Below, piece by piece: positions 2,505 to 56,843 of a stretch of 60,452 nucleotides of DNA. The stretch covers positions 1-60,452 of the forward strand of contig CAIZQW010000085.1 in assembly GCA_903935195.1 (NCBI GenBank), written 5' to 3'. The DNA is from an uncultured bacterium (GTDB lineage Bacteria; Verrucomicrobiota; Kiritimatiellia; RFP12; UBA1067). Numbering within the stretch: position 1 is the stretch's first letter; the number at the start of each line of letters is the position of its first letter. Made by a program: the position numbers and the translations under genes. The notes beneath the pieces are model-generated. The model had not been told where the DNA came from. It saw only the letters and a program-made list of their open reading frames with translations, and ran no database searches.

Positions 2505-4349
2505 TCAATCGTTGGGTAATGTCTTGTACCACGTGAAGTAAAGGGCGACACAGGCACTCATGAAAATCACAGCACAGAGAGCTCCCTTCATCGGCCAGTA
2601 GCCAAGAAAATAGACCGGCATCATGTAGAGAGAGAAGGACGCGATCATGCCGAGCACGATATTCACACCGATCAGCAACAGGCTAATACTGGATGCCATA
2701 GGCAGGTTCAGAGCACGAGCAGTAGCCTCTTCACGTTTCCAGAAACCAAAGGGCCGAACCTTGGCGTAGAAGCCCGCACTGACTTCCGGTTCTAATGCCG
2801 GTGTCAGAAGTGAAACCACCACGCAGGCAATTGTAGAGACTGACAGTGTGACGTAGGTGTAGATGTCCACAGGGATGCTCTTTAAGATATTCCCGTCGGG
2901 CACGAAGTTGCTCGCCAGCATCGCGAGGGAAGGAAATATTCCGACCACACAGCCGGCGGCAAACCCCCAGCCGTTCATGCGTCCCCAATACCAGCGTAAA
3001 GCCAGCGGAACCACGAAACAGGTCAAGAGCCCCCCCAGCATCCAGCTCCAGATCACGTTCATCGCGCTACCGCCCCCGCGGTTCTGAGTCTCGACCATGC
3101 CATAACCGATCGCGATAGCGATGAAGGCGAGCAACAAGGTGGCCAGATAGCTGGCCCAGATCAACTCCTTAGCCTCGTCAGACACCTTCGGCCGAAGCAA
3201 GGGCTGATAGAGGTCGCGGACGATGATCGATGCGCAGGCATTGATCTCCGAACAGAAACTCGTCATGAAGGAGGCGGAGAGTCCAGCCACCACCAAGCCA
3301 AGGAAGCCGGGCTTCAAGAGTCCTGACTTGAGAAAGAGCGGCATCACGCATTCAGGGTCTGTGCTGATCTGAGACTGATAAAGCGTATAGCCAAGAAAGC
3401 AGAGACCCGCAGTCATCAGCCAACGGGGGAAGCCGAGAAATTGCCAGAGCGCGGCCATCAGCGCCGCCTCGCGGGTATTTTTAGTCGCCAAAAAACGCTG
3501 CTCGCCGTAACGACCGCCCGCGCCGCCGATACAGCCGATCATTCCGATAATTGAACCGGCCAGTACCATGCCCGAGAAATCTTTCCAGCCCACATAGCCC
3601 TTGGCCGCCTCGAACATGCCGATCCGCGGCATGCTCTCGGGAACCAGCGACGTCCAATAGTCTGCGTTCACCGCTGTCGCGCCCGCACCATGCGTTAGGA
3701 AGGCGTGAAGCGTTTCGGCGCTATACTGGACATAACAGACATAGCTGATGATAAAGGCCACTGAAAACAGGACGACCGTCTGTAGGAACTCGCTGAAGAT
3801 AACACCTTTGAAACCACCAAACAGCACATAGACGCTGGTCAGGGTCACGGCCACAAGAGAGAGCACATGTGCAGCCTCGTACGTGCAACCGAATACCATT
3901 GAGAATTTGTGGATGATGATGTATGACATGCAGAGCGATGCGACACTGAAGAGGCTGATCATCAGCGCGAAACTAGTCCTCGCCCATTTGGCACCCGCGC
4001 CATCACCGAAGCGCACCTTGTTCAATTCAGCCGCTGTCATGCAGCCGCACCGTCTGATCCAGATGCCTGAATACGCCATCAGAAAGACCGCGCTGGGCAT
4101 CCACCAGACCAACGTGACATAGAAGGACTTCATCCCCAGTACCATCAGGATCGCCAGATTCCAGACCGTGCCATTGATGGAGAAATTGGTCGAGGCACCG
4201 GACGCTGCGAGCATCCACCACTTGTTCTCCGCGCCCAGAAAATAGGTTTTCTGACTCTCCGCCGATTTACGGGAAAAGAAAAATCCTGCCCCGACCGCAA
4301 TCAGAAAAAAAGCGCCGATGATCAGAAAGTCGATTAGAGCGAAATACAT
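2505..4349 (-). CDS. sodium:solute symporter (SSF) family transporter
   Basis: 614-aa ORF with an ATG start and hydrophobic segments throughout. The N-terminal block 'FFFSRKSAESQKTYFLGAENKWWMLAASGASTNFS' is typical of SSF/SGLT-type symporters. It is the only transporter in the glycan locus. Confidence 0.8.
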   Translation of the reverse strand: MYFALIDFLIIGAFFLIAVGAGFFFSRKSAESQKTYFLGAENKWWMLAASGASTNFSINGTVWNLAILMVLGMKSFYVTLVWWMPSAVFLMAYSGIWIRRCGCMTAAELNKVRFGDGAGAKWARTSFALMISLFSVASLCMSYIIIHKFSMVFGCTYEAAHVLSLVAVTLTSVYVLFGGFKGVIFSEFLQTVVLFSVAFIISYVCYVQYSAETLHAFLTHGAGATAVNADYWTSLVPESMPRIGMFEAAKGYVGWKDFSGMVLAGSIIGMIGCIGGAGGRYGEQRFLATKNTREAALMAALWQFLGFPRWLMTAGLCFLGYTLYQSQISTDPECVMPLFLKSGLLKPGFLGLVVAGLSASFMTSFCSEINACASIIVRDLYQPLLRPKVSDEAKELIWASYLATLLLAFIAIAIGYGMVETQNRGGGSAMNVIWSWMLGGLLTCFVVPLALRWYWGRMNGWGFAAGCVVGIFPSLAMLASNFVPDGNILKSIPVDIYTYVTLSVSTIACVVVSLLTPALEPEVSAGFYAKVRPFGFWKREEATARALNLPMASSISLLLIGVNIVLGMIASFSLYMMPVYFLGYWPMKGALCAVIFMSACVALYFTWYKTLPND

Positions 4350-4394: not shown

Positions 4395-7300
4395 TCAGTT
4401 ATGTCGACTGTCCATTATTTTCTTCACTGTCTTGCCCCCGTCAGCTGAGCGATAGAGTCCGTCCGTGGCCAGCAGCCACCAAAGATCGCCTTTTCTATAT
4501 TCACCGCAGAATGCAATATAGCCTCCTTTAGGCACATCTCCTGCCATGTCAACCCAGTACCATTTTAAAGCAAAGTCTTCGCTACGGGAAATCCGACCTG
4601 GCTTTACGGGGTCAAGAGCCTGAAGAAGCGCTCGTCCACATCGTGTATCTCCGCGACCTGAACTCGCCACAGCCGTGAACGGCCTCAGGCTTTCCATGCT
4701 CTTGGCTTCAGGAAACAGGAACATTTTACGATCACCCAGCGTCATGGCATATCCATGCGTCGTGGCAAAGGAGGGCTCATCAACGGAACCTTTGTCGAAA
4801 GCCACATTCAGGTACCCCACATCGCTCCACTCACAGATCGGCCACATGCTCTTGCCACCTGTGCGACTGACGTAAACACGCGAACTTTTGACGGAGGCCG
4901 ACAGGGCTGGCTTGCCACGCCCCAGAAGTGGCATCAAAGCATCAGGACACGTGACGACATGCATGCGAGGAAGGCCCTTTTCGCCCCGACTCCATCCGCA
5001 CAGAGCAACGGCAGTGATGCGCTCATTCTCAATCCCGATTTTCGTCCATGTGACACCGCCATCCTCGCTCTTGAACAATCCTCGGGTCTCACACCCAGCA
5101 TAAACAATTTCCGGGTTTTCAGGATCAATAGCAATAACCTCACCGCACAGCGCTGACGGTCCTACACCATCAAAATCGCCTGAAAAATTAAGTTTTTGCC
5201 ATGATTTTCCAGCATCCGTGGTTTTCCACAGACCCCCATCCCATTGGCCTGAGGCATCAACCCGTCCTGCTGCACGGTACATCATCTGCGGATCTTTCGG
5301 ATGAACGGAAACACTGCGGACTGAGTTGGCAGCCCCACTCAACCCCCCATTGGCGGCTACCCAACTCTTGCCGTCATCTTCAGTCCGGAACAGTCCCTGC
5401 TCAGATGAACGTAGAACAACGATCCTAGGATCGGATCGTGACATCACAACACCGGTCCAGCGCGGCCCGTCCGTATGAGTTGCTGTGATAGAGACGGGAA
5501 GGGCCATATCCTTGGCCACACCAGCTTCCAGCTTCACATTGGACACCTTGGCCTGGAAATACGCCTGAGCATCCTGTGGCAGAACACGAAAAACAACACC
5601 CGCGTCCACGCCAGCACGCATCGGTTTAAGGTGTGTAGCGCCAAGTTGCCAGGCCTTACCATCAGCCGATGTCCAAGCCATCCAGACCTGTCCCTTGCGC
5701 ACTATTCTTATCCACGGGTGCCCCTTGGGCAGTTCGTAGCTATTGAGTCGGCTCGCGCCCTGGTCGCTGAAATCCGGAGTCGTCCGCAACCCGCCGCGTG
5801 CCATCTGGCAGATCCCAAAATCCTCACCCCACCACCGTTCCGTCCCTTTTTCTCTTGCGGTTAACCCGACCCATGACCAGCCGTTCACTGGCTCATGATT
5901 ACTTCCATACCAAGAATCGAGCCGACAGGTCAGGGTGAAATCTCCTATAATAGGGCGCGTCACCACATATTCGCCTTCGCCAATGAAAGAAAACGCATCA
6001 GGAGCAGTCTGCCAAATCCCTTTCACCGCCTTCTGCTCGCCAACCACAGACATAACCCAGCCATCCTGGATAGCCGGCCCCGTGATCACGATGTGTTCAG
6101 GAAGTGAATCCATCGTGCAGTTCGTATCATACGTGACACGCGTCCAGAGCGTGTTCGTGCCATTGAGCATGGGACCATGATACGTTAGCGCTGCAGTGGA
6201 ACTTTCAGCCATCTGCATAGTTCCGACGAACAGTTGGAGCTTTGTTATCGTATGCCCCTTCGCATCCACATCAACCTTGACTGTGGCTGTCCCATTCGTG
6301 CCACCGTATGTCGTTAACATAGCCACCGGCATCTTATCAGAGTCTTGGCGGACCAATAATGAAGCAGGGATTTCCTGCCTGGGTATGCCCGGCCCTTCCC
6401 ACTCAAGCTTGAAGAACGGCGACGAAGAATCATCGACAAAGTAATCGACTGTGAGCGGGTGATACCCCGTGTCAAGATTCACATATCCCGAGCGTTCTGC
6501 TGGGCCATGCTTTCCATCCCAGACCAACGCATCACGCCCATCAACCGATATGCGGTATCCGTCACATCCCTGCATACGCAGGACATAAATACCGTTTGTG
6601 GGAGCGCGCAAAAAACCCTGATACCGGAAGGCGTATCGCTTTCCAAGGGAAGCTCCGACCGACGTATCAAACCCACGCGAGACGCCCTGTTTATTCAACG
6701 TTGCTCCTTCAATATCAGCAAGCACTATCCGGGTTTTTTCCTTAAACTTGTTCCGCAGTTCGTAGCTCAGTCCTGGCACCATTGTGCCCATCACCGCGCG
6801 AGAGGGCTGGGTTGCGACCTTGACGGCGACAATTTGAGGCTGAAGCACCTGATCGAACACGTCAATCAGCGAGAAGCGAACCGTCGGTTTAGCAGCAACA
6901 GCATCAAGGAGCACCATACGGACTGTCGGCATACGTTCCTGCCGGACAGCAACCGGCTCGCCCTCGCAGGAGGCGTTATTAAACACTTCGATGCGATACA
7001 GAAACTGAGGGGAAGACTTTTCAGCGAGAGTCCATTCTACCAACACCTGCTTTCCATTGGATTGAGCAGACAGAGATGCTATCTGCGGGCTATCGAGTTT
7101 CGGCTTTCCCGGCTGTTGAACTATGAACTCATGCGTCTTGTTTGCCTCCAGCGGAGTGCCCTTCAACAGGAAGGGCACCATCGCCTTGTTCCAAGACAAC
7201 TCCATAGCAATAAACTCGTGATCGCCTTCAGGCTTCACCTCAACAACCCAGTAATTGTCATACTGCCCGTTCTTTGGATCAACACGAATGGTAGTTTTGT

Positions 7301-8048
7301 TCGACGAACGCCACGTCCCTTCTTTGAGGAAGTATCCCAGTCGACGGTGCAACGAGCGCACTGAACGTCCACTGTTGCCGATATCCTCTAAAAATCCGTT
7401 GTTGCTGTTAAACGACTTGGCAGGCACCGGCAAGCGCATGATTCCGTAGAGGTGCCACTGCCCACTGGCATTGTCCTTGATCCAGCGCCCGATAAAGCTA
7501 TGCTGGGCATTGGTCACTCCGACAGGCTCCCACACCCGCATCATCATCGTGTACCAGGCTCCGTTTGTCATGAAAGGCCAACTGTACGCGCCCAGCGAAC
7601 CGCTGGCGCCTTCTACGATATACTGTCGTGGATAGGTGTATTCAGACGACGCGACAACACGTACGGGTTCACCCTCTTTATTGCTGCCCCAGAATGACCA
7701 CACTGAGCCGGGATGGAATGCCGCCTGAACTGCTGGATCCATATTCGGCTTATGGTCAGGAGGTACAGACGGTATTCCGTTGGCAAAACCACCGTAGCCA
7801 CCTATACCAGTGGGGCTAGTTCCAAAATTCCAGATCGCAGAATATGTGCTTTCCGGCCAAAAAGGCCAGCACACATCCATCATGATGACTTCAGCACCAC
7901 TTTCGACATTCTCACCATACCAGGTGGCATAGAGCGTGTTAGGAAGCGTAGCTAAAAGAAAGGTCGCCAACAGCATGCTAGATCCACGCACGCCTCGTCC
8001 TGCATCAAACCACTTACCGTCACACTCGACCGCATATCTCTTGTTCAT
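4395..8048 (-). CDS. secreted multidomain protein: DUF3472-like N-domain + PA14 + ConA/LamG-like beta-sandwich + BNR/Asp-box (sortilin-like) propeller
   Basis: 1217-aa ORF. The DUF3472-like block is 'VWSFWGS...GAWYTMMMRVWEP...GQWHLYG...NGFLEDIGN'. The PA14-like block is 'GIYVLRMQGCDGYRISVDGRDALVWDG...HPLTVDYFVDDSSSPFFKLEWEGPG'. C-terminal Asp-box repeats are 'TEDDGKSW', 'TTDAGKSW', 'SEDGGVTW' and 'SADGGKT'. The signal-peptide-like 'MLLATFLLATLPNTLYA' begins at the internal Met, so the true start may be 7976. Confidence 0.7.
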   Translation of the reverse strand: MNKRYAVECDGKWFDAGRGVRGSSMLLATFLLATLPNTLYATWYGENVESGAEVIMMDVCWPFWPESTYSAIWNFGTSPTGIGGYGGFANGIPSVPPDHKPNMDPAVQAAFHPGSVWSFWGSNKEGEPVRVVASSEYTYPRQYIVEGASGSLGAYSWPFMTNGAWYTMMMRVWEPVGVTNAQHSFIGRWIKDNASGQWHLYGIMRLPVPAKSFNSNNGFLEDIGNSGRSVRSLHRRLGYFLKEGTWRSSNKTTIRVDPKNGQYDNYWVVEVKPEGDHEFIAMELSWNKAMVPFLLKGTPLEANKTHEFIVQQPGKPKLDSPQIASLSAQSNGKQVLVEWTLAEKSSPQFLYRIEVFNNASCEGEPVAVRQERMPTVRMVLLDAVAAKPTVRFSLIDVFDQVLQPQIVAVKVATQPSRAVMGTMVPGLSYELRNKFKEKTRIVLADIEGATLNKQGVSRGFDTSVGASLGKRYAFRYQGFLRAPTNGIYVLRMQGCDGYRISVDGRDALVWDGKHGPAERSGYVNLDTGYHPLTVDYFVDDSSSPFFKLEWEGPGIPRQEIPASLLVRQDSDKMPVAMLTTYGGTNGTATVKVDVDAKGHTITKLQLFVGTMQMAESSTAALTYHGPMLNGTNTLWTRVTYDTNCTMDSLPEHIVITGPAIQDGWVMSVVGEQKAVKGIWQTAPDAFSFIGEGEYVVTRPIIGDFTLTCRLDSWYGSNHEPVNGWSWVGLTAREKGTERWWGEDFGICQMARGGLRTTPDFSDQGASRLNSYELPKGHPWIRIVRKGQVWMAWTSADGKAWQLGATHLKPMRAGVDAGVVFRVLPQDAQAYFQAKVSNVKLEAGVAKDMALPVSITATHTDGPRWTGVVMSRSDPRIVVLRSSEQGLFRTEDDGKSWVAANGGLSGAANSVRSVSVHPKDPQMMYRAAGRVDASGQWDGGLWKTTDAGKSWQKLNFSGDFDGVGPSALCGEVIAIDPENPEIVYAGCETRGLFKSEDGGVTWTKIGIENERITAVALCGWSRGEKGLPRMHVVTCPDALMPLLGRGKPALSASVKSSRVYVSRTGGKSMWPICEWSDVGYLNVAFDKGSVDEPSFATTHGYAMTLGDRKMFLFPEAKSMESLRPFTAVASSGRGDTRCGRALLQALDPVKPGRISRSEDFALKWYWVDMAGDVPKGGYIAFCGEYRKGDLWWLLATDGLYRSADGGKTVKKIMDSRHN

Positions 8049-8144
8049 CTTTATTATTCTCCTTATCGTTTAGCAGGCGTCGGTTTCGTCTCCAGCACCA
8101 GCACCTCGAACGACTTCGATGCGAATGCTGTATCCCATTGTTTT

Positions 8145-9251
8145 TTAATACGCACCGTATTCCTCCACCAGTTCACCGACACGCCGCACACGCGATGCCA
8201 GTGCGCCTGGGGGTACCTGATCGCCCACACCCAGAACATACCGGGGCGACTGGCGCATGACCGATAGCACCTGCCTGATATGCCGTTCAAACTCGGCATC
8301 GTCCACCAGCGCCGTGAAATAACCGCCGGGGATTCCACCCCAGAGAACGGTGTCGGGATTCCCGCAGAACCCCGCCCAGTCGGCAACGGCAAGATCACCC
8401 ACCGGCGCAGGGGTCATCGCCTCGATAAAACTCAGACCGACTGAACATTCTTGCTTCAACAGCCCCTTCAGGGTTCCATCGAGATGAATACAGGAAAACT
8501 TGCCGGTCGCTTGGATCGCCGCCGCCCATTCCGTTTGATAAGGCCGCATGAACTGTTCAAACAGAGCAGGCCCCACCACTTCCGAGGAAAGGTTCTCCGG
8601 CATCATGAGCACCTCGGCTGGCGATTCCACTGCTACACGCGCGGCACGGTCATGTGAAGCTTTTACTACACCAAGGGTTTCGGCAAACAAGCCCTCGTCG
8701 TCGCTCATCATTTCAACGACTGCCATGATTCCCGCATCCAGCGCCACCAGCTGCATCAGCGGGCTCTTAGGCAGGTAAGCCAGCATCACGCCTGCACCGG
8801 TCTGCCTCAACAATTCACCACGTTGCCTGGCAAAATCGTAGTCAGGCTCATACCGAGTGTTGGCATGAAGATGCTGATAGGCAGGCAGGTCGGACACGCT
8901 CTTCACCAGATGCTCAACCGACCCCTCGGTAAAGTCATCCGGCATCCACTGCCAGCACTCCCTCAGGGTTCCCGCAGGCGTTGTGATCCGCCGATAGCGG
9001 CGGATACCTTCTTTCCATTCCTCCACCTCGCAATTCTCAACAAGGGTCTTGAAGGGAAAATATCCTTGCAGGTAGAATCCGACCCCGAGCTCAATATGCC
9101 AGTCAATATATTCGGGGCTTTTTTGGAAGCCCTGCGGTTTCTGACCACGCCCGACCAGCGCCGTGGCCCAGTAATCAAGGTCGCCCAACCAGGGCACACG
9201 ATCCGGCTGTTGGCCGTTCAGAATCGCCAAAACTCTTTCGCGTGATGTCAA
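8145..9251 (-). CDS. uroporphyrinogen decarboxylase (URO-D) family protein, function unknown (copy 2)
   Basis: 368-aa ORF with no signal peptide. The N-terminus 'RERVLAILNGQQPDRVPW' is typical of URO-D/MtaA-like proteins, and 'GKFSCIHLDGT' sits near residue 256. The TTG start directly abuts the TAA stop of the upstream paralogue. Confidence 0.65.
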   Translation of the reverse strand: MTSRERVLAILNGQQPDRVPWLGDLDYWATALVGRGQKPQGFQKSPEYIDWHIELGVGFYLQGYFPFKTLVENCEVEEWKEGIRRYRRITTPAGTLRECWQWMPDDFTEGSVEHLVKSVSDLPAYQHLHANTRYEPDYDFARQRGELLRQTGAGVMLAYLPKSPLMQLVALDAGIMAVVEMMSDDEGLFAETLGVVKASHDRAARVAVESPAEVLMMPENLSSEVVGPALFEQFMRPYQTEWAAAIQATGKFSCIHLDGTLKGLLKQECSVGLSFIEAMTPAPVGDLAVADWAGFCGNPDTVLWGGIPGGYFTALVDDAEFERHIRQVLSVMRQSPRYVLGVGDQVPPGALASRVRRVGELVEEYGAY

Positions 9252-10283
9252 TTAAACCCCAACCTTTCCCCATTCGTCATATACAGCCATGACCGTGGCC
9301 GGGACTCCGCCGGGCCCAAACTCGAGCTGGGCGATGACGCCACCCCTCGGATCGTAAAAATGCTCTGCTACCTTGCGCACCGCCTCACGCCCTTTCTGCG
9401 GATCAGACGACGTCAACACATGCTGACGGTCGATCTCACCCCAGAAGGTAATCTTGCCCTTGACTTGCTCTGCCACGTCGGCCATGTCCATCACGAAGAG
9501 CTGCGCGTTCAGGGCATCAACGCCGACCTCTACTAAGTCGCGGATGACCGCTGTGATATGCCCGTCAGAATGCATAAAGCCGAACTTGCCATGCGCGTGC
9601 GCCAGATCGCAATAATCCCTGTAGAGCGGTTTAAACCATTCGCGCCACACGGGTGGCGGTATCAAGAGTTGGTTCTGCGACCCCCAGTCATCCATGAAGA
9701 ACACTGCGTCCACATCCGTGGTAACCCAGAACTCCAACTCCCGCAGGTAATGGCGGTGGATCACCTCAAGGCAAGCCGTCATACCCTCATCCGGTGTCAT
9801 CACATCGGCCAAGCTGTTCTCCGTGCCACGCAGAAACTGGTAACGCTCCCACGGCCGCGGCAGGCTCTGGGCAAACACAAACTGTTCCGTCCCCCCGCAG
9901 AACCGGTTGACTCTGTCGCGTGCCTCACGCACATCAACAGGGATATTCTCCACCGGCGGACGGATGGTCTTAGGGTCAGGATTGTCGCCTGTCAGGAGCG
10001 GAAACTTAACCTCTCCGTGTACCCCCTCTTGGATATTCGTGAAGACACATCCCCAGTCGTCGGTCGCCTCGCCGATCATGTAGGGGTCGCCTTTCTTCAG
10101 GGGTGACGATTTCCCGGCAACGGGCGCAATAACGATATCTCCGGGATAATCAACACGCAGGGCCGCCAGCTCCTCGGGGTATCTTTTCTCCGCCCACGGC
10201 AGGGTCCAGAGATCCCGCGGAATCCGTTCCGGAGTCCCGAACTCGAGGCAGCGCCTCATATTTTCTCGGGGTGTCAGGCTCAT
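9252..10283 (-). CDS. uroporphyrinogen decarboxylase (URO-D) family protein, function unknown (copy 1)
   Basis: 343-aa ORF with an ATG start and no signal peptide. Motifs are 'RENMRRCLEFGTPERIPRD', 'VDAVFFMDDWGSQ' (a D-x-W-G block like HemE/MtaA) and 'GKFGFMHSDGH' near residue 238. Confidence 0.7.
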   Translation of the reverse strand: MSLTPRENMRRCLEFGTPERIPRDLWTLPWAEKRYPEELAALRVDYPGDIVIAPVAGKSSPLKKGDPYMIGEATDDWGCVFTNIQEGVHGEVKFPLLTGDNPDPKTIRPPVENIPVDVREARDRVNRFCGGTEQFVFAQSLPRPWERYQFLRGTENSLADVMTPDEGMTACLEVIHRHYLRELEFWVTTDVDAVFFMDDWGSQNQLLIPPPVWREWFKPLYRDYCDLAHAHGKFGFMHSDGHITAVIRDLVEVGVDALNAQLFVMDMADVAEQVKGKITFWGEIDRQHVLTSSDPQKGREAVRKVAEHFYDPRGGVIAQLEFGPGGVPATVMAVYDEWGKVGV

Positions 10284-10337
10284 GACTTCACCTCTGCAGT
10301 GTAAATAAAAGTCTTTCCCATAATCCTCTGTTCCTGC

Positions 10338-12473
10338 TCACTTGACCGGTGCGAGGCCAATCGTTTCGCCCGAGTCGGTTACCACTGTGAAACGTTCCCC
10401 TCCCAGAGTCTCTTTCGCCTTACCATTGCGCGTGACGCGAACCTTCTTGCCCGGCCATGGATTCTGTACCATGCAGGGCTTGCCCTTCTCACTGACAATT
10501 TTCACACCCGACACCGCACCACCCTTCAACTCCGCCGAGACAATGAACGCACCGACGGCGCGCAACGTCCCGAAGCGGGCATCCTGATCCTTCGGCCAGC
10601 AGGGAAAGAAACGTAACACACCCTCATGGCTCTGCAGCAGCATCTCATTGATCGCCAGAAAACCACCGCAGCTCTCAACCCCGCCGCCTCCGTAGAACAG
10701 CAGGAGGTTCGGGAAGGAATGCTTGTCGCACTCCTCACGCATTTTCGACAAAATTATTTTAGGGTCATAACTTACTCTGGCGCAGGCGGTATACCACGAC
10801 GAGAAGCCATTATAATCCGCCCAACGGCTCATCTCGTCAATCGTATTGCGGCTAATTTCCAACAGCTTTGGATCACTCTCCAAGCCGATGGTATCGGAGG
10901 GAAAGATGTGCTGTATACCCAACGTGTTGTCCTTCCACCAAGCAAGCCCTTTCTCCGTATAGCGAAACACGGTCTTACCGTTTCGCTCCTGTAGTGGGTA
11001 GGCACTCAACCGATCTTGAATGTCCTGCCATTTGGCTCGCCGTACGTCATCCACACCCAGATCCTTGCTCATGACAATCAGATTTTTAAAGAGGTTTCTG
11101 ACCAGTCCCAACGAGAGAATGGGATTCAGATCCTCGCCTGTACCTTCATGAATTGCGTCGCCATGGATTACATACCGACCCGCTTCCAGCTTGAGGTAGT
11201 CTTCCCAGAATGCCGCCACTTCCAACAGATACGGATACGCTGTTGATTTTAGGAACTCCTTGTCCTGCGTGTACTGATACTGCCAGATAAAATTTAGGGC
11301 CACATATGCGGCATTCGAACGCTGCCCATGATCCTTTTCGCCCTCGGGGAAAATGCCCCTGGGTCCAATGCACACGGGAAAATATACACCTTTCCATCCA
11401 CGTTTCTTGGCCAGCTCTTTGGCACGGGGCAGCGCCTCAAGGATCGCCTGATAAAACGGTAGCGACAAATCAGCGTGGTTACTGGCATAGGTGATATAAT
11501 ACGGTGCCTGAAAATTATAGTTCAGGTGATAGTCGCCCTGCCATTGCGCGAAGAGTGTGACCCAGCACCCCCAGAGACCAGGCGCCACTTTACCAGCCTT
11601 GCTACACGAGCCCATCACGTACAAGGCCGCGTACCAGCGCTTCTCAATTTCCTTGTCAGGGATCTCAATGAACGATTTCGCCCAAAAGCTCTTCCACCAG
11701 TCCCTGTGCTTGCCCGTCATCGGTGAAATGTCTTTTGCTTCCAGCGACAATACCGTCTTCTTTGCCGTTTCAAGAAAATCAGGCGCATCTAGTTTGGAGA
11801 GCACGCACGTCACGAGCGTTACCGCCTCGCCCGCCTTGAGGGTCAGCTTCAGCGTGCCACCGGCGCTGTCAAGAACCGGTGCGCCGCCGATGATACGGCT
11901 CACCACTGCGATGTCCATTCTATTCTCTGGAGCCGCGTCCTGACTCTTGCGCGTATAACACAGGACACCTTCGGGAAGAGTTGTATGGCGGGTTCCCCAA
12001 GGCTCGTTCAAACCATTTTTCTGTGAAAGCACGACCGTCACCGGCTTTGTCCCAGCACACTTCAATTCCGTCACCAGTAAATTGGAGTGGGTGTCGACGA
12101 ACGAGCGCGTCTGCACCGCGACCTCGTCGTTCGTGAAGGAGCCACGCACCTCTGCTAGCGCCAGATCCTGCTCCTGCCGATAACTTGCGCCCTTCAGCTC
12201 CGCGATCGCGAGGGTTAGCCCACCAACCGGCATCGCACGCGAGCCGTCACCGTACCCCCACCAGTCGTTCTTGCCGATAAAGAAGCGCTGTTCCTCCGGT
12301 GCCCCAGCCAACGCAATACCTAGATCGCCATTCCCCAGCAGAGGCCCGTCAGGCATGTAGTAAGTAGGAATGTTCTTCGGCGGCTCAGTAAAGACGGCTG
12401 TGTAATCCATGGCCTGCACCGTAGCGCAGGAAAACAACGCCAGCATCGCATATCTGCACAATCTGTTATACAT
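10338..12473 (-). CDS. distant GH95-like six-hairpin glycosidase, secreted
   Basis: 711-aa ORF with a signal peptide ('MLALFSCATVQA'). 'DGPLLGNGDLGIALAG' echoes the GH95 N-terminal GNGxLG block. 'GLWGCWV...WQGDYHLNYNFQAPYY' echoes the GH95 'NLQGxWN...YHxNINxQMNYW' block. Confidence 0.5.
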   Translation of the reverse strand: MYNRLCRYAMLALFSCATVQAMDYTAVFTEPPKNIPTYYMPDGPLLGNGDLGIALAGAPEEQRFFIGKNDWWGYGDGSRAMPVGGLTLAIAELKGASYRQEQDLALAEVRGSFTNDEVAVQTRSFVDTHSNLLVTELKCAGTKPVTVVLSQKNGLNEPWGTRHTTLPEGVLCYTRKSQDAAPENRMDIAVVSRIIGGAPVLDSAGGTLKLTLKAGEAVTLVTCVLSKLDAPDFLETAKKTVLSLEAKDISPMTGKHRDWWKSFWAKSFIEIPDKEIEKRWYAALYVMGSCSKAGKVAPGLWGCWVTLFAQWQGDYHLNYNFQAPYYITYASNHADLSLPFYQAILEALPRAKELAKKRGWKGVYFPVCIGPRGIFPEGEKDHGQRSNAAYVALNFIWQYQYTQDKEFLKSTAYPYLLEVAAFWEDYLKLEAGRYVIHGDAIHEGTGEDLNPILSLGLVRNLFKNLIVMSKDLGVDDVRRAKWQDIQDRLSAYPLQERNGKTVFRYTEKGLAWWKDNTLGIQHIFPSDTIGLESDPKLLEISRNTIDEMSRWADYNGFSSWYTACARVSYDPKIILSKMREECDKHSFPNLLLFYGGGGVESCGGFLAINEMLLQSHEGVLRFFPCWPKDQDARFGTLRAVGAFIVSAELKGGAVSGVKIVSEKGKPCMVQNPWPGKKVRVTRNGKAKETLGGERFTVVTDSGETIGLAPVK

Positions 12474-12495
12474 CTTTTTTTCTTTCTTTTGCTTT

Positions 12496-14403
12496 TTAAC
12501 GATAGGCTACCAGTGGCAAGGCACGCGAAAGAACGATAGAGTCCGTGAACACTCCGTTCGAAACCACATCGGCAGACACTGGGACGATCTTTACCGCATT
12601 CCCCGTGGCAAACACGGCAGCTCCACCCCAGTCGGCGAGATCACAGGCAGCGCCGTCGCCACCGTCCGTGACGACAAGTCTCATGCGCTTGGCGCCTCTC
12701 AGGTCGACGGACAGTAACTTGGGTTCATCCCCGCAGCGCATCAGTCCTGAAGTGGCTTTCCTCACATTGTCCACCCAAACCTGAAAAATCACGGAACTGA
12801 CCCCAGGGGGGCCCGCCATATCATCTACACCGACCGCCGAGACAAACCGAGTCGCCTCCCCCCCAAGTTCAACCTCAACCACGCTGGCCGCATGCGTTCC
12901 GATCCCATGCTCAAAGATCTGCTTGGCAATGGAAAGGGGTTTCTTGCCACCGATCGACTTTCCCTTGCCCACGGTGCCGTAGCCCAGCTTCACGAGGCTC
13001 AAGTCCTGCGAGTCGAGCCAGACCGCGCCGGCGGGAGCGTCTTTACCTTTCAGCACCGACAGAGGTACTTCAGTCACGATCACCCGTGTTGTCGGCGTCA
13101 GTACCACGCGGTGTATCTTCGGCTGACGCGCCACCTCGATCTTCGCCTCGCACTCGGCGATCTGCTTGTCCAGCTCCGGAATCGGCCCCTGGTTGTTGGG
13201 GTTCAATTGGCAGTTGCGCCAGCGCTTGAAATAAAGGTCGTTCTTCCTGAACACGGCCTGGAGGAGTTCCTGAGACTGACGCAACACAGGACCCGGCGTC
13301 ATAGCCATGTTCCAGCCCTTGGACAGCTCCTCTCGCGTCACAACGCAGACGCTTTCGCCGTCGATCTGCACATCATAGTATTCCGCCTTCAGCCCCGTGA
13401 CTACCAGTTCATAACGGTTCAGCTCGGCGAGAAGCGGGATGTGCGCCAATCCCGGTTCGGCGCGTTCATCAACCGGCATGGGCAACGCACCGTCCAGGCG
13501 TTCAAAGCTGAGCACACCCTTGGCCCATGTGATGTTTGAGACTTTCGCGTTCTGCGCCGTTACACCCACTTTTTCTTGCGGCCGCGTCACGTCCAGCGCG
13601 ACCTGCGAAACCAACGACGGCATGCCCAGCCCCTTGAGGATGGACCACGCCATAATCAATTGACCCGCCGGCCCGGGATGGATAACGTCCCCGCCGCCGA
13701 TGGAAATATGGGGGTTCCCCGCACGCGCCTTGAGCATCAGCGCCATGTAAGGATCGAACTGATCCGCGAAGGTGACTCCCTCTGCTACTGAGACGTTCTT
13801 GAGCGCATCGGCGAACTTCCTGAGCGAAAGATTCCGCGCGTCCTGGTTCGGATCCGGCCGTCGTTCTTCAAGAGGCTGCGGTGTGATCAGGGTGACACGT
13901 GCGCCACTGGCTTTCAGCGTCTTCACAAGCTGAGTTTGGCTGCGTACATAGGCATTGCAGATATCCTGGCGAAAAGGCTGGTAGGAGTGGTCGTTCATGC
14001 CAAAATTTATCGTCACAACCGTGGGTTTCAGCGGCAGCACGTCACGGCCTAGCCCAGCCGCAACAGCCTTTTCAACAAGCGCCTGTTGCACCTCGGGTGT
14101 TGCGGCGAAGAGCACGTTCTCATCCGTCACGTAGCGCTTGCGCAGCCACGAGGTGTCCCCCCCCCATCCCACATTGCGAAAGACCAGCTTATACGTGGGA
14201 TAGCGCGTGAGCCAGTAGGCCTCGAGGTATGTCGTGTACAGGCGCTGTTCGGTAATGCTGTCGCCTAAAAAAACCACTCGGTCGCCGCTACACAGCGTAA
14301 AGTCCAATGCACCGCCAGCCTTAGCCGCAGACGGAATGGTCGCCCACGTCATCATACACGCTGCGATCACAAGTAGTCTCTTCATGTAACAGATCCTCAT
14401 CAT
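12496..14403 (-). CDS. SGNH/GDSL esterase fused to a C-terminal NPCBM carbohydrate-binding module
   Basis: 635-aa ORF. SGNH blocks are 'VVFLGDSITEQ', 'GWGGDT', 'NFGMNDH' and 'DVIHPGPAG'. The C-terminal NPCBM-like block is 'FEHGIGTHAASVVEVELGGEATRFVSAVGVDD...VIFQVWVDN'. An alternative ATG at 14385 gives the signal peptide 'MKRLLVIAAC'. Confidence 0.75.
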   Translation of the reverse strand: MMRICYMKRLLVIAACMMTWATIPSAAKAGGALDFTLCSGDRVVFLGDSITEQRLYTTYLEAYWLTRYPTYKLVFRNVGWGGDTSWLRKRYVTDENVLFAATPEVQQALVEKAVAAGLGRDVLPLKPTVVTINFGMNDHSYQPFRQDICNAYVRSQTQLVKTLKASGARVTLITPQPLEERRPDPNQDARNLSLRKFADALKNVSVAEGVTFADQFDPYMALMLKARAGNPHISIGGGDVIHPGPAGQLIMAWSILKGLGMPSLVSQVALDVTRPQEKVGVTAQNAKVSNITWAKGVLSFERLDGALPMPVDERAEPGLAHIPLLAELNRYELVVTGLKAEYYDVQIDGESVCVVTREELSKGWNMAMTPGPVLRQSQELLQAVFRKNDLYFKRWRNCQLNPNNQGPIPELDKQIAECEAKIEVARQPKIHRVVLTPTTRVIVTEVPLSVLKGKDAPAGAVWLDSQDLSLVKLGYGTVGKGKSIGGKKPLSIAKQIFEHGIGTHAASVVEVELGGEATRFVSAVGVDDMAGPPGVSSVIFQVWVDNVRKATSGLMRCGDEPKLLSVDLRGAKRMRLVVTDGGDGAACDLADWGGAAVFATGNAVKIVPVSADVVSNGVFTDSIVLSRALPLVAYR

Positions 14404-14448
14404 TTAACGGCTGTCGACTTCTTCGCCGATTTTAACACATTCTTTACT

Positions 14449-16791
14449 TTACTTAACAGTAAGCGATGCAGACTCGAGTCCAGTGGCGCTGGCGGACACG
14501 CGGACGGGGCTACCGCTGCCGGGAGTGAGGAGCAGCGCCGAGGCGATGCCCGCTTCGGCGGTGACCGTCTCGGGTGAAGCCATCTCCGCACCAGTGGCCA
14601 CGAACGTGAGCGGCAGGCTGGCATCGGGAACCAAGGTGTTGTTGGAATCGAGAATTTCCGCGTAGACAAAGAACGCATCTTTCGCGTTTTTAGAAACAGG
14701 GACACCCGCGAGCCTCGTAACCAAGCGTATCTTGGCGGGTTTTTCAGGGGTGCGCACGGACTGCACGGTAGCAGACGTTCCATCGATGAAACCTGTGGCT
14801 GTGAGCTCGCCAGGAATGAAGGCGGGAACAACAAAGGTGAAGGGCGGATGCGAAAGGTTTTTGGAAAAAATATTCTGGTCGGGTTTCTGCCGGGCAATAA
14901 CCGCACCGTTCAGACGCAGCTCCACCTCTTCGCAATTGGAGAAAACCCGAACTGCGAGCGTGGACTGCGCTGTCCAATAGGAGGCGATGAAGACCATGGG
15001 CTTGGCCATAAACTCGCCCTGAGCGTTACGTTGGCTTGTGTAGAAGTGATAGACAAATTTGGGTAAACGGAAAAAATCAACAACGCCACTGGTGCAATAA
15101 TGCGGTTTAGCTCCGCTACTGTAATCATTGAACAACCAATTCGCATCGCCAATCATCGAGGTGCAGACGTGGTTTTGATTGTGGCCCTCTTGGAAATTAA
15201 GGGCCTGTTGCAACATGCGCTTTTCGCCGTCCGCACGACGCTGTCGGCTATTGACTTCCTCGCGCTTGAGTTCCTTCACGCCAGTCTGGTTGAAATTGGC
15301 AGCCCTGTCGGCGTAGTACTCCCAGTCTCCATACTCAGCAGTGAAGATTGGCTTATCGCCCTGCTTCCAGTCATCCCAAAATTTCGGGCCTTCCGTATGC
15401 TGCCGGGCAGGGATGAAGACGTCGTGGTATTTGTCGCTATGGCTGACGGACAAAGCGCCAGGGTATTCTTGTCCGACAATCTCGTGAAGCTGTTTCAAAA
15501 ATGCATCTGGCTGCCCCGTCTCGTTCAGGGAGGTCTCCCAGAAGATGCAGGACGGATGATTGCGATCACGGCGAATCATATCACGGGCATTTTGCAGGCT
15601 GCGCTCGGCAAAAATCCCGTCCTTGTAGAACTGCCACCCGGGAATCGGTTCCATCACTACGATGCCGTAATAGTCACAGGCATCGAGAAACGATGGTGAA
15701 TTCGGATAGTGCGAAAGGCGGACCAGATCAAATCCCGCCTGCTTGATCAGGGCTGCATCACGCCATTGGGCGCTGTCTGGTACGGCATACCCAATATAGG
15801 GATACTCCTGATGCCGATTGGTTCCACGCAGATAGATCTTCTGTCCGTTGATGGTGAAGCGTCCTGCGGTACAGGTTACTGACCGGATGCCCACCTTGAT
15901 GCACTGGCTGTCAACGACAGTGCCGTCAACGTTAAGAATCTCCGTCGCCAGCGGGTGTAGATACGGAGCTGTCGGAGACCAGAGTTTCGGAGAGGGAATC
16001 GTCAGCGTGAGCGTGGGGTTGGTGGACTTCCCCGATGCCAGTGTGGCTGGCACAGATTGAGCGGAAACACCAGAGAGCGAACAACGTACTAAAAATTTGG
16101 CTGACGTGCTTCTGTTATTTTTAACATGAACTCGGACGTTAACGGTCGCCTCTTCTGCAGAAACCTTAGGATAAGTGACAAAGATGCCGCCAGACGCAGC
16201 AAGGTTGGCGGCTACCGGATCGGTGATATGAAGTTTGTCGGTAACCCGCAGCTCCACATTCCGATAGAGGCCATGATACCACGAGAAATCCAACTTCCGA
16301 AAAGGCTTGCCAGGTGGAAGATCGGTATTCTCTCGATTGTCGAGTTTGATCAACAACTCATTGGTCGCCCCCTGATTCAACACCTCGGACAAATCGACCT
16401 GGAATGGCAAATACCCCCCCGCATGAGTTGCAATCACTTTACCATTGAGTGAAATATCAGCAGTATGCATGGCACCCTCAATAGCGAGGCAAACTCGTTT
16501 TCCTTTCCATGCCGGATCCGCCGTGATCACCTTTCGATAGAGACACTCGCCCATCCACATCTTGTCGCCCATCAGGAGCGGGGCGAGTTGCGCGGTATGC
16601 GGAAGCGTGGCAGGCTGCCATACCGTGGATACTGTCGCAGTGGCCGTGTTGAGGGCAAACTGCCAGCCCTCATTGAAAGGCTGTGGCGCCAACGTCGGCG
16701 GCTTGGTAGAGACGTCTGTGTACTCCAGAGCTTGAATCGTCGTGCTAAAAAACAACGCCAGCATCACACATTTGAAGATATTTTTTTGCAT
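14449..16791 (-). CDS. glycoside hydrolase family 2 (beta-galactosidase/beta-glucuronidase-like)
   Basis: 780-aa ORF with a signal peptide. GH2 blocks are 'NGKVIATHAGGYLPFQVDLS', 'GTNRHQEYPYIGYA', 'FDLVRLSHYP' and 'IFWETSLNET'. Confidence 0.8.
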   Translation of the reverse strand: MQKNIFKCVMLALFFSTTIQALEYTDVSTKPPTLAPQPFNEGWQFALNTATATVSTVWQPATLPHTAQLAPLLMGDKMWMGECLYRKVITADPAWKGKRVCLAIEGAMHTADISLNGKVIATHAGGYLPFQVDLSEVLNQGATNELLIKLDNRENTDLPPGKPFRKLDFSWYHGLYRNVELRVTDKLHITDPVAANLAASGGIFVTYPKVSAEEATVNVRVHVKNNRSTSAKFLVRCSLSGVSAQSVPATLASGKSTNPTLTLTIPSPKLWSPTAPYLHPLATEILNVDGTVVDSQCIKVGIRSVTCTAGRFTINGQKIYLRGTNRHQEYPYIGYAVPDSAQWRDAALIKQAGFDLVRLSHYPNSPSFLDACDYYGIVVMEPIPGWQFYKDGIFAERSLQNARDMIRRDRNHPSCIFWETSLNETGQPDAFLKQLHEIVGQEYPGALSVSHSDKYHDVFIPARQHTEGPKFWDDWKQGDKPIFTAEYGDWEYYADRAANFNQTGVKELKREEVNSRQRRADGEKRMLQQALNFQEGHNQNHVCTSMIGDANWLFNDYSSGAKPHYCTSGVVDFFRLPKFVYHFYTSQRNAQGEFMAKPMVFIASYWTAQSTLAVRVFSNCEEVELRLNGAVIARQKPDQNIFSKNLSHPPFTFVVPAFIPGELTATGFIDGTSATVQSVRTPEKPAKIRLVTRLAGVPVSKNAKDAFFVYAEILDSNNTLVPDASLPLTFVATGAEMASPETVTAEAGIASALLLTPGSGSPVRVSASATGLESASLTVK

Positions 16792-16823
16792 TTGTTCTCT
16801 CTTCTTTTAGTTTTCGCAACACC

Positions 16824-18272
16824 TTACCATGCGTCTGTCCGGAACGGAGATGCCGGTAATCCTTCATTATTGTACAGGTTGCAGCCGTCTGGATTAACGG
16901 AGTACGCATAACGTACCGCGACGGGTCGAAGAACTTCAGGACTTGAAACTACGATGGTTTTCCCATCTATTACGGCATCCGCCCAGAACCACTTTTTGTT
17001 ATCCCCTGCAATCGCGAATCTCTGCAGTTTACCCTGCGGGTCCTTGACCATGGGGTTATAGCCTTTCTTGGTTGCCACGGTCAAGCCAGAACCGATGTTG
17101 TCAAAAGCAATCCTTATCTTATTGTCTTCAATATTCATGGCCCTGTAAAGCGGGCCGCTATACACGAGATCATTCTTGCCGTAATTTTTCGCGAGCGCCC
17201 AGAGCGCCAGACGTTCGCCCACGTCTCGCTTGTTCTGCGGATGGACATCGCCAGGGTTGCCGACGTTTGCTAATTCGATTGTTACAGCCATGCCGGTATT
17301 CGTGATGGAAAGCGCCTTAAACTGGCCCATACGGGTCTTGGCCCAACCATCACCGCCTTCCGGTTTGTTGTCCGGATTGCTGTAATTGGGAAGCTGGACA
17401 AAGTGGAAAGGGAAATCGCCCTGGCTCCAGGCCTTGCGCCAACCGTTGATGAGAGCGCGCATTTTGTGATAATACCCGTCTTCTTCACTGCCGTTGGTTT
17501 CGCCCTGATAGAAGAGCACACCTTTGATCCCGAAGGTCACCAGAGGATGAATCATGCCATTATACATACAATGCCAGTCGCAGGGCCCAATTGCACACCC
17601 CCCTGAAACATCGAGTCTGGCCTTGTTTTTCGAAAGTTCGGGAATCGCAGCCAACCCGTCGGCGGAGCAGAAAGGCTCGATCGACCTCCCGCTCGCTACG
17701 CTCCTGATCAGACCGATGGGAATACCGGTTTCGCGGTGTATTTTGCGACCGAAATAATAACCAACTGCTGTGAAGTTTCCCGCCGTCTGGAGAGTGCACG
17801 ACACCCAGCTGCCCTTAACCTCAGTCTGCTGAAAGCCGGCATAATTGCTTGGCACATCGAACTGCCGGATCAGCGGGTAGTCAGCCTTCTTGGCATCCGC
17901 TGAGCTGCCGCAGCTTCCTAGGAGCAATTCCATATTGGACTGACCGCTGCAAACCCAGACGTCGCCAACGACCACATCTTTGAGCGTCACCTTGTTCTTG
18001 CCGGCAATACTCAGAGTGGCGGAGTTCGTCGATGCCTTCAGTGCGTCCAGTTTGACGCTCCAGTTGCCGGCCTTGTCGGTGATCGCGGTTTTTTCCTGAC
18101 CAGCGAAAGCGACAATAACTTTCTCGCTCGGGTCAGCCTTGCCGTAGATCGCCACCGGTATCTCTCGCTGGAGAACCATGTGATCCGTAAATAATCCGTG
18201 TAACGTAACATCGGAATACACCGACAACGTCATACCCATTGACATCAGTACCAGCCACATTTTTTTCATCAT
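16824..18272 (-). CDS. sialate O-acetylesterase-like (SASA/DUF303) carbohydrate acetylesterase
   Basis: 482-aa ORF with a signal peptide. Motifs are 'VWVCSGQSNME', 'GVLFYQGETNG' and 'HPQNKRDVGERLA'. Confidence 0.8.
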   Translation of the reverse strand: MMKKMWLVLMSMGMTLSVYSDVTLHGLFTDHMVLQREIPVAIYGKADPSEKVIVAFAGQEKTAITDKAGNWSVKLDALKASTNSATLSIAGKNKVTLKDVVVGDVWVCSGQSNMELLLGSCGSSADAKKADYPLIRQFDVPSNYAGFQQTEVKGSWVSCTLQTAGNFTAVGYYFGRKIHRETGIPIGLIRSVASGRSIEPFCSADGLAAIPELSKNKARLDVSGGCAIGPCDWHCMYNGMIHPLVTFGIKGVLFYQGETNGSEEDGYYHKMRALINGWRKAWSQGDFPFHFVQLPNYSNPDNKPEGGDGWAKTRMGQFKALSITNTGMAVTIELANVGNPGDVHPQNKRDVGERLALWALAKNYGKNDLVYSGPLYRAMNIEDNKIRIAFDNIGSGLTVATKKGYNPMVKDPQGKLQRFAIAGDNKKWFWADAVIDGKTIVVSSPEVLRPVAVRYAYSVNPDGCNLYNNEGLPASPFRTDAW

Positions 18273-18303
18273 GACAATTTTCCTTCCGAAGTGATTTTAG
18301 TAC

Positions 18304-22104: not shown

Positions 22105-22142
22105 ATTGCGTCTCTCAACCATGACGTTTACACATGACATCC

Positions 22143-27232: not shown

Positions 27233-27237
27233 GTTAT

Positions 27238-29853: not shown

Positions 29854-29932
29854 ATGATTTGCCTTGTTTTTGATACAGCTGAGCCAGAACGCCCTGACTG
29901 TGTACGCTGGCATCAACGACTATTTCTTAACC

Positions 29933-33208: not shown

Positions 33209-33214
33209 GCTCTT

Positions 33215-34343: not shown

Positions 34344-34359
34344 TATAAAAAGGGCCTAC

Positions 34360-56836: not shown

Positions 56837-56843
56837 CACGATT

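Follow-up and report, generated by a model that had tools for sequence, protein, structure and literature searches.

Two abutting minus-strand genes, A and B, on a 60,452-nt contig of an uncultured Verrucomicrobiota bacterium (CAIZQW010000085.1; this whole 60-kb stretch is called the window hereafter) encode proteins with the fold shared by uroporphyrinogen decarboxylase (UroD) and the methyltransferase MtaA. From sequence comparisons, we tentatively propose that A and B are corrinoid-dependent methyltransferases which demethylate imported methylated sugars, a reading that we regard as quite possible while falling somewhat short of probable; the sugars in question would carry the methyl group as an ether, or possibly as an ester. 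The two genes are:

9252..10283, minus strand: gene B, 343 aa, ATG start, URO-D/MtaA fold, motif 'FMHSDGH'
8145..9251, minus strand: gene A, 368 aa, TTG start, URO-D/MtaA fold, motif 'CIHLDGT'

These coordinates and sizes agree with those of an earlier note made from the DNA letters alone, and so does the junction it described, at which the TTG start of A directly follows the TAA stop of B with 0 nt in between (coding strand, ...GGG GTT TAA TTG ACA TCA...). The start codon of A is backed by the A-family consensus N-terminus MTPRERVLA, and a Shine-Dalgarno-like GAGGTGA lies upstream of B. The four peptide strings quoted in that note are all present in A and B. Signal peptides, which it had held to be absent, were not seen on sequence inspection alone either: neither N-terminus has a hydrophobic signal-like stretch, and both align to the family's conserved N-terminal helix.

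A and B belong to uncharacterised clades of the UroD superfamily

The predicted fold was borne out by a hidden Markov model (HMM) search, structure prediction and a structural search, the checks named in the earlier note. Pfam PF01208 (URO-D) gave 47.5 bits for A and 46.2 bits for B against a gathering cut-off of 23.9, with matches limited to the C-terminal halves of both proteins (profile positions ~154-346), and AlphaFold2 models built on 41-43 homologues reached a pLDDT of 94.4 for A and 93.3 for B. The best Foldseek matches of A and B in the PDB were HemE, human UROD and M. mazei MtaA (4ay7, the best match of A), with E values of 1e-9 to 1e-12, TM scores of 0.6-0.69 and 12-17% identity. 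MetE formed the next structural tier (TMq 0.48-0.51), and the weaker matches of A include sugar epimerases and aldolases. In both models a beta-sheet is inserted after the first barrel strand, outside the region that matches URO-D. Between themselves, A and B share ~21% identity, over 105 aa only.

Closer assignments failed. The NCBIfam hemE equivalog TIGR01464 did not match A or B at E <= 1, and no haem or tetrapyrrole genes were found among the window open reading frames (ORFs) scanned, the loci of relatives likewise holding glycan genes. With neither an equivalog match nor pathway neighbours, we rejected a role in haem synthesis. The substrate-binding residues Arg37, Arg41, Asp86 and Tyr164 of human UROD belong to the N-terminal half, which in A and B does not align to the HMM and holds an inserted beta-sheet. 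Of the MtaA/CmuA family models (TIGR01463, NF040654, NF041608), TIGR01463 scored 24.5 and 25.7 bits, below its cut-off of 235.4, and MtaA gave 14-37 bits against a cut-off of 400. PDB sequence searches with single A, single B and the B profile returned no meaningful match, and URO-D was the sole Pfam family found, Meth_synt domains being absent from both proteins. A and B are neither HemE nor canonical MtaA, and represent two large uncharacterised clades of the superfamily.

Both clades are widespread. B has >5200 cluster-level homologues and occurs, at 47-62% identity, in at least 594 species-representative genomes of KSB1, Armatimonadota, Planctomycetota, Verrucomicrobiota, Lentisphaerota, Chloroflexota, Cloacimonadota, Gemmatimonadota, Bacteroidota, Actinomycetota and other phyla. 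A has >1400 homologues (e.g. in Opitutaceae, Sedimentisphaerales and Anaerohalosphaera lusitana) and was found in at least 380 metagenome loci. The source annotations of these homologues read only 'uroporphyrinogen decarboxylase (family)', 'methyltransferase' or 'hypothetical'.

Carboxylates in place of the zinc thiolates

To compare neighbourhoods, ORFs were called in 170 related loci and clustered, and the neighbours were annotated. Besides B (HSDG) and A (H[LIMV]DG), these loci contain the UroD paralogue classes B2 (WYH[TS]DGQ) and A2 (HWDGD) as well as ~31 classical H-x-C proteins, and 227 UroD-family ORFs from them were aligned. In each of these five classes, the His column holds nothing but His (100%). 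Two residues on, Cys stands in every H-x-C paralogue and Asp in 100% of A, A2 and B2 and 99% of B; H238/D240 of B and H256/D258 of A are invariant in 43 and 41 homologues, respectively. The A-family profile aligns 'fscihlDGtl' with 'vtvLHICGNV' of 4ay7, which sets H-x-D in the H-x-C register with a weak match (E 0.18). The register that had been drawn by eye, H-x-D in place of H-x-C, is thus upheld by both the profile alignment with 4ay7 and the H-x-C paralogues.

The remaining ligand positions differ as well. The MtaA-like (H-I-C-G) paralogues carry their second Cys in a C-terminal 'GC' motif. Its place is taken by D344 in A, by Asp in A2 and by E321 in B, and in B2 a Glu lies one position off. 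In what would be the column of MtaA's zinc-associated Glu, a Glu is retained by A (E277) and by A2, and B has N259 and Q261. Candidate metal ligands are H256, D258, E277 and D344 in A, and H238, D240 and E321 in B, a geometry drawn from the alignment and strand-end positions rather than from model coordinates. As judged by this alignment, both zinc thiolate ligands have been exchanged for carboxylates, and this in two separate lineages of the superfamily. The metal site looks retained but 'harder', and a carboxylate-type site of this kind would suit oxygen ligands rather than thiol activation. In addition, B has 9-10 invariant or near-invariant Trp residues, and A has many aromatics.

Several of these features would equally suit lone metal-dependent sugar-modifying enzymes (an isomerase, epimerase, dehydratase, decarboxylase or unusual hydrolase) that have lost methyl transfer, with a His/Asp/Asp(Glu) metal site and invariant Trp/Tyr for sugar binding. 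This is the main rival to our proposal, and we consider it rather unlikely. It would account for the loss of both zinc-thiolate ligands; the near-invariant Trp of B and the aromatics of A fit a carbohydrate pocket, and the beta-sheet subdomain inserted after strand 1 as well as the weak Foldseek matches to sugar epimerases and aldolases point the same way. So do the occurrence of the families in probably aerobic phyla and a sugar-rearranging context of AGE epimerase, GFO/IDH/MocA and xylose-isomerase-like neighbours (see below). However, no superfamily member with such chemistry is known save HemE, whose pyrrole electron sink does not carry over to sugars, and the gene neighbourhoods described in the next section would go unexplained.

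Metal-site variants are also found together. In five B loci (L008, L033, L037, L065 and L087), 3-4 UroD-family paralogues of differing motif classes stand side by side; the classes in multi-paralogue loci are H-x-C...H, H-x-C...C, H-x-D...D and H-x-D...E. One distinct class carries 'H-S-C-G' with a C-terminal His replacing the second Cys. The metal-site diversity of the UroD superfamily in non-methanogens seems largely unexplored.

Relatives of both genes adjoin corrinoid proteins

Genes for corrinoid proteins (CPs) were located by tblastn with corrinoid-protein sequences, within a distance limit of 10 kb. They occur in 9 of ~77 distinct B loci and 2 of ~78 A loci, mostly directly adjacent, and the CP-linked B orthologues are 50-57% identical to the window's B and carry the same motif. 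A CP lies directly upstream of B on the same strand in six loci (L038, L041, L047, L049, L057 and L085), L065 has it in the same cluster, and in L040 and L087 it lies no more than 4 kb from B. The order A2, CP, B is found in L041, L047 and L057, and the same trio appears in L065, with two further genes in between, and in another order in L038. The CP of L057 matches the cobalamin-binding proteins of Moorella (1y80) and Desulfitobacterium (4jgi), MttC, MtmC and the MetH B12 domain. This locus reads GH31 ... GH29 fucosidase, A2, CP, B (GH, glycoside hydrolase family); the fucosidase gene, whose product matches a solved GH29 at E 2e-77, overlaps the A2 start.

Genes for reactivation of the carrier are present, too. 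L065 reads HSCG, A2, CP, MetH-activation-like protein, HICG, B; in L087 (Lacunisphaera, Verrucomicrobiota) the RACo reductive activase is encoded directly upstream of B with a CP nearby, and L049 holds RACo, CobW, AraC and then, divergently, CP and B. In the Sedimentisphaerales metagenome-assembled genome (MAG) of L040, fused electron-transfer flavoprotein (ETF) beta/alpha and ETF:quinone oxidoreductase genes (6204-11023) stand directly upstream of B on the same strand, 4 kb from the CP. Their position suggests an electron-transfer link, which would perhaps serve carrier reactivation in a manner unlike RACo. On the side of A, L169 encodes a homocysteine S-methyltransferase, an AGE-family epimerase, a sugar porter and A, followed by an MtaA-like HICG protein (TIGR01463, E 3e-47), a CP (TIGR02370, E 1e-50), a MetH-activation-like protein and GH35; its sugar porter passes the NCBIfam cut-off (345 vs 238 bits).

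CP-linked members fall in at least five separate places of a neighbour-joining B tree, interleaved with GH38-linked members. Since they are so scattered, the CP link is not restricted to one B sub-clade. By our own rough estimate, chance alone would place so rare a gene directly beside B in well under 1 of 77 loci. It is the adjacency to CP, RACo, MetH-type reactivation and homocysteine methyltransferase genes, in at least 11 loci of unrelated phyla, that the sugar-modifying alternative leaves unexplained. It also speaks against the independence from a corrinoid partner that the earlier note had implied. That note had offered two activities, O-demethylation and decarboxylation of an acidic sugar. 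Methyl transfer has gained from the CP, RACo, MetH-like and MtaA-type genes beside relatives, and decarboxylation found no specific support; because of these corrinoid partners, O-demethylation is the better supported of the two. Of the substrates named there, 2-O-Me-fucose and 2-O-Me-xylose would be plausible.

Corrinoid chemistry in the window's own genome

The 3' end of the window, outside the array that holds A and B, contains three genes which bear on this question:

58244-59143, plus strand: stand-alone MetH-type homocysteine S-methyltransferase domain; PDB sequence match to the MetH N-terminal domain, E 3.5e-42
59166-60242, plus strand: 358-aa H-C-C-G...S-C-G UroD/MetE-like protein; HMM local alignment, 'THCCGN' on the H-x-D column
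60244-, plus strand: start of a CooC-like ATPase gene that runs off the window's 3' end

Contig L171, with 98.2% nucleotide identity to window positions 51700-60452, continues at 8548-18543 with a second CooC, carbon monoxide dehydrogenase (CODH; Prismane), a 1150-aa fusion of acetyl-CoA synthase (ACS) and corrinoid Fe-S protein, CdhD and RACo; a pterin-binding AcsE-type methyltransferase was absent from the L171 stretch examined. Because L171 carries CODH/ACS, corrinoid Fe-S protein and RACo, the host itself is predicted to run corrinoid-dependent methyl chemistry, and the system that begins at 58244-60452 is a possible in-trans partner of A and B. The statement that neither haem nor corrinoid genes lie nearby accordingly needs dividing: it holds for haem, and for corrinoid genes it holds over ~48 kb around the pair and fails past the window's 3' end, given the MetH-type domain from 58244 on and the CODH/ACS and RACo genes of L171. 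For a glycan degrader, it is unusual to have a CODH/ACS module that begins with genes for a homocysteine methyltransferase and a UroD-like protein.

Sugar porters and glycosidases as recurrent but loose partners

On the same strand, A-family genes most commonly have a sugar porter of the MFS or SSF type as neighbour (MFS 11/78, SSF 4/78, together 15/78), followed by GH38 (4) and GH29 (2). B genes have GH38 in 6 of 82 and transporters in 8 of 82 cases, B12-binding proteins in 3 (first count), and also GH2, GH31 and sulfatases as neighbours. The GH38 BLAST cluster occurs in 7 A loci and 10 B loci besides the window. Representative orders are GH38, A, MFS, GH18, GH38 in A. lusitana; SASA, GH38, B, MFS in a KSB1 MAG (L005); GH36 followed by B on a Gemmatimonadota contig; MtaA-like (HICG), A, sugar porter, GH38, GH2 in L174/L175, whose A is 82% identical to ours; and GH38, (AGE), sugar porter, A, MtaA-like paralogue in L154, L166 and L174.

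The synteny with carbohydrate-active enzyme (CAZyme) genes anticipated for relatives was recovered, if loosely, as a repeated association with glycosidases and sugar transporters. The specific families proposed for it were not: in a survey of 80 B loci, GH95, GH127 and GH78 each occurred in only 1-3, so that tight synteny with any of them was rejected, and the recurrent partners are instead GH38, GH29 and sugar porters. The linkage is real but modular, with a sugar transporter plus GH38/GH29 as its stable partners. In six loci (L154, L166, L169, L148, L160 and L168), an AGE-family gene (cellobiose 2-epimerase/mannose isomerase-like) adjoins the sugar porter and A, often along with several GH38 genes. 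This recurrence points to a putative pathway centred on mannosides in one branch of A.

The same neighbourhoods bear on whether a sugar is the methyl donor at all. A and B might be corrinoid-dependent and draw on another donor, such as a methoxylated plant-wall aromatic, a methylthio compound or a methanol-derived one, the glycan context being incidental. We consider this improbable. Plant cell-wall glycans do carry feruloyl and other methoxylated aromatics, the CP-B loci L049, L085 and L040 have no glycosidase nearby, and the characterised corrinoid methyltransferases of the superfamily use aromatic ethers, thiols, halides or methylcobamide (PMC10418091, PMC8630106). On the other hand, A stands most often next to a sugar-porter MFS or SSF, one of these MFS proteins scoring above its cut-off as given for L169, and A lies within GH38/AGE/GH35/GH29 operons; the GH29 gene overlapping the A2 start in L057 argues in the same direction, and carboxylate-rich, Trp-rich sites would fit polyols better than aromatics.

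Pairing of A and B

Among related loci, B or B2 sits directly upstream of 14 of the 77 A genes and frequently abuts them, one A gene has B directly downstream and five adjoin an H-x-C paralogue; ~30% of A genes stand directly beside a second UroD-family paralogue (B, B2 or H-x-C type). The majority of A and B genes occur singly. L088, L091 and L151 retain B followed by A as a pair. In L176, a close relative with ~90% DNA identity, gene A is precisely missing (window 9270-7934), as is the stretch 18304-25376. Since both segments are gone, the array is built of movable modules even among close relatives. Also in this contig, B is represented by an orthologue with 25 additional residues that directly adjoins the DUF3472/PA14 gene, and the NPCBM-GH78-GH43 and GH127 genes are gone. 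An obligate A-B heteromer as a general rule was rejected, given the prevalence of singletons, the lack of A in L176 and the A-B identity of only 21% over 105 aa. No fusion of a UroD ORF with a B12-binding domain was found among the long UroD ORFs, which are apparent upstream-start artefacts.

MetE consists of two UroD-like barrels, and A and B might, singly or as a two-barrel pair, be MetE-like cobalamin-independent methyltransferases that pass the methyl group directly from sugar donor to acceptor at the metal site. MetE is the next-best structural match, tandem B-like/A-like pairs do recur, and such enzymes would work in aerobes and in the majority of loci, which have no corrinoid protein. 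Yet the H-x-C...E...C zinc site for thiol activation is not kept, and Pfam Meth_synt does not match. The abundance of singletons and the loss of A from L176 show that a heteromer is not obligatory, and the adjacency to corrinoid proteins speaks for a carrier. We judge this alternative to be very unlikely.

A proposed route for methyl transfer, and what weighs against it

Under the corrinoid-dependent sugar demethylation that we favour, secreted CAZymes of the array and GH38 would release a methylated mono- or oligosaccharide, which the SSF symporter would import. A would act as the substrate-side 'MT I', its metal at H256, D258, E277 and D344 polarising the methoxy oxygen or sugar hydroxyls while Co(I) of a corrinoid protein attacks the methyl carbon. 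B would serve as 'MT II' and hand the methyl from CH3-Co(III) to an acceptor which, because of the carboxylate-type site H238, D240, E321, is probably not a thiol and could be tetrahydrofolate; alternatively, B might be a second MT I for another sugar. The corrinoid protein and its reductive activator would be encoded elsewhere in the genome, and the methyl group would end in methionine or acetyl-CoA. The split of roles is a guess, made because A is found more often by transporters and B often by the carrier.

Several points weigh against this proposal. The division into MT I and MT II is, as said, guesswork, and the close relative L176 does without A. The resemblance to MtaA is remote (13-14% identity to 4ay7; NCBIfam ~25 bits vs 235). 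Alkyl ethers, to which sugar methyl ethers belong, donate methyl groups far less readily than aryl ethers do, and we know of no corrinoid enzyme that acts on them. No CP was found in the DNA examined for ~88% of the B and 97% of the A loci, and most relatives stand alone beside a glycosidase or a transporter, with corrinoid genes out of reach, which favours the sugar-modifying alternative; known corrinoid methyltransferase genes, by comparison, usually cluster with their carrier (PMC10418091). In the 60-kb window, we found no CP, RACo, MetH-activation homologue or pterin methyltransferase, and the CODH/ACS cluster, ~48 kb from the pair, may be unrelated. The neighbour sets of relatives are mixed, with no single conserved partner. 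Finally, B occurs in lineages usually held to be aerobic (Gemmatimonadota, Fimbriimonas, Planctomycetaceae), and the window itself encodes a KatG-like catalase-peroxidase (TTG start; 43761-46172, plus strand), which suggests oxygen exposure of an organism that also carries CODH/ACS.

Relation to known systems

MtaA, MtbA and CmuA (4ay7, TIGR01463) have in common with A and B the UroD-type TIM barrel, the His of the H-x-C column, an N-terminal 'P-[DE]-R-[IV]-P' and strand-end motifs, and A/B orthologues adjoin MtaC-like corrinoid proteins and RACo. They differ in their zinc site, His-x-Cys...Cys, of which A and B keep the His and replace both Cys by carboxylates. Further differences of A and B are the low identity given above, the beta-sheet insertion, the setting in glycan catabolism instead of methanogenesis and the operon without a corrinoid gene. 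HemE shares PF01208 and the fold, and is a top Foldseek match; 'MDDWG' of B resembles the HemE motif 'FDSWGG'. HemE is metal-free. A and B, in contrast, have a probable metal site, an HMM match in the C-terminal half only, no TIGR01464 match and no haem neighbours.

The superfamily includes, besides MetE and HemE, corrinoid methyltransferases that demethylate O-, S- and halogen-methyl compounds (PMC10418091). Operons for aromatic O-demethylases of the MtvB/MtoB type encode MT1, a corrinoid protein, MT2, an activase and an MFS transporter (PMC8630106). This layout of the MtvABC, OdmABCD and MtoABCD systems, i.e. methyltransferase-CP-methyltransferase plus transporter and activase, is mirrored in relatives of A and B by A2-CP-B, RACo-B and MFS-A-MtaA-like-CP. 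Their MT I belongs to the same superfamily (PMC10418091), the likeness to A and B being drawn from operon layout, and they cleave ethers by O2-free methyl transfer, as proposed here. Unlike A and B with their carbohydrate context, however, they act on aromatic methyl ethers, and the carrier and activase are unclustered in the window and most relatives.

Type 1 mlp clusters in anaerobic bacteria (Kountz & Balskus), whose function is unproven, combine MtaA-like proteins with a corrinoid protein and Ram/RACE (PMC10418091). Like the A/B loci, and likewise in non-methanogens, they bring several UroD paralogues together with an activase and a corrinoid protein, and the H-x-C paralogues found alongside A or B in some loci may be Mlp-like. 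Mlps share >25% identity with coenzyme M methyltransferases, occur mostly in Firmicutes and have been proposed to act on methyl-sulfur or methyl-selenium substrates (PMC10418091). A and B, with 13-14% identity to 4ay7, no cysteines in the site, an operon lacking CP and RACE, and sugar loci of PVC (Planctomycetota-Verrucomicrobiota-Chlamydiota) and other phyla, are set apart from them. A and B fall outside the HemE, MtaA/CmuA, MetE and Mlp groups and within the UroD superfamily.

The sole carbohydrate demethylase that we found in the literature is an O2-dependent P450/ferredoxin system which demethylates 6-O-methyl-D-galactose during porphyran degradation and is encoded inside a polysaccharide-utilisation locus (PUL; PMC6292453, PMC10033563). 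Its physiological role, removing a methyl ether that blocks sugar catabolism, would be that of A and B if our hypothesis holds. It differs in fold and is oxidative, releasing formaldehyde, whereas A and B would be O2-independent and conserve the methyl group. Our literature search for UroD-family proteins in PULs or CAZyme clusters, or for corrinoid-dependent sugar demethylation, returned nothing relevant, and the literature searched held no assigned function that would contradict the statement that no URO-D-family enzyme has been characterised on carbohydrates. A bolder claim, which we put forward as conceivable and somewhat doubtful, is that the two clades would be the first corrinoid methyltransferases acting on carbohydrates, an O2-independent removal of methyl ethers (or methyl esters) from sugars, spread over many phyla of heterotrophic bacteria (PVC, Chloroflexota, KSB1 and others), with a re-tuned His/Asp/Asp(Glu) metal site and a methyl group that passes to a B12 carrier and on to methionine or, here, through the CODH/ACS past the window's end, to acetyl-CoA.

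The finding bears on how anaerobes and the glycan degraders of sediment and gut handle methylated sugars. Such sugars, e.g. 2-O-Me-fucose, 2-O-Me-xylose, 3-O- and 6-O-Me-mannose, 6-O-Me-galactose and 4-O-Me-glucuronate, occur in pectin (rhamnogalacturonan II), xylans and algal, fungal and bacterial glycans, and block ordinary catabolism. Two large clades mislabelled 'uroporphyrinogen decarboxylase' or 'methyltransferase' now offer concrete candidates, with genes, predicted ligands, partners and substrates. If the proposal is true, carbohydrates would join the substrate range of corrinoid methyltransferases, glycan degradation would be tied to one-carbon, methionine and acetyl-CoA metabolism, with B12 dependence predicted for some glycan-degrading lineages, and widespread hemE mis-annotations, which distort haem-pathway predictions in MAGs, would be corrected. 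Should A and B instead be sugar-modifying enzymes, they would constitute a new carbohydrate-active enzyme family on the UroD scaffold.

The operon and other genes of the window

A and B are part of a co-directional array of 14 genes (150-31684), all on the minus strand, whose single transporter (SSF) lies 3.8 kb from A; Pfam annotation of the window ORFs here reproduced the CAZyme array as first described. Along the plus strand, the reverse of transcription, its genes encode GH38, SSF symporter, DUF3472/PA14/sortilin, A, B, GH95-like, GDSL+NPCBM, GH2, SASA esterase, NPCBM-GH78-GH43, GH127, GLAA-B beta-helix, GH95 and PATR. The main features around the pair are:

150..2498, minus strand: GH38-like alpha-mannosidase (Pfam Glyco_hydro_38N, 53 bits), a module recurring with A and B in relatives
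2505..4349, minus strand: sodium:solute symporter (Pfam SSF, 71 bits), the array's only transporter
4395..8048, minus strand: 1217-aa protein with DUF3472, PA14 and sortilin/BNR beta-propeller (Pfam), between A and the symporter
10338..31684, minus strand: upstream co-directional CAZyme array (Pfam), whose composition differs among close relatives

The A-B pair is flanked by gaps of 54 nt upstream and 96 nt downstream, and a simple scan revealed no terminator-like sites in its 0-nt, 54-nt and 96-nt gaps. Given such short gaps and the lack of a terminator-like site, co-transcription of the pair with the array is plausible. The SSF symporter is probably the importer of the substrate. BNR/sortilin-type proteins are also encoded near A or B genes in L007, L031 and L044, with a likeness to the 1217-aa protein at the repeat level only. 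As a conserved neighbour, the BNR/sortilin protein was rejected, the 700-750-aa neighbours in L089 and L090 being unrelated to it.

A set comprising a GFO/IDH/MocA oxidoreductase, 1-2 xylose-isomerase-like TIM barrels (AP_endonuc_2) and an AraC-type regulator stands beside the B-A pair in the window (31916-35499, plus strand) and recurs beside a B-A or MtaA-like-A pair in L088 (4666-8832) and L174 (2550-8153). It resembles the oxidoreductase and lyase/hydratase genes of the oxidative 3-keto glycoside-cleavage pathway. The set could be part of the same catabolic route, or provide an alternative removal of sugar substituents. Outside the array, the minus strand further carries Tad/Flp-type pilus genes (T2SSF, FHA-T2SSE ATPase and RcpC; 35529-39081) and genes for FeoB and a DtxR/FeoA-type regulator (39962-42616).

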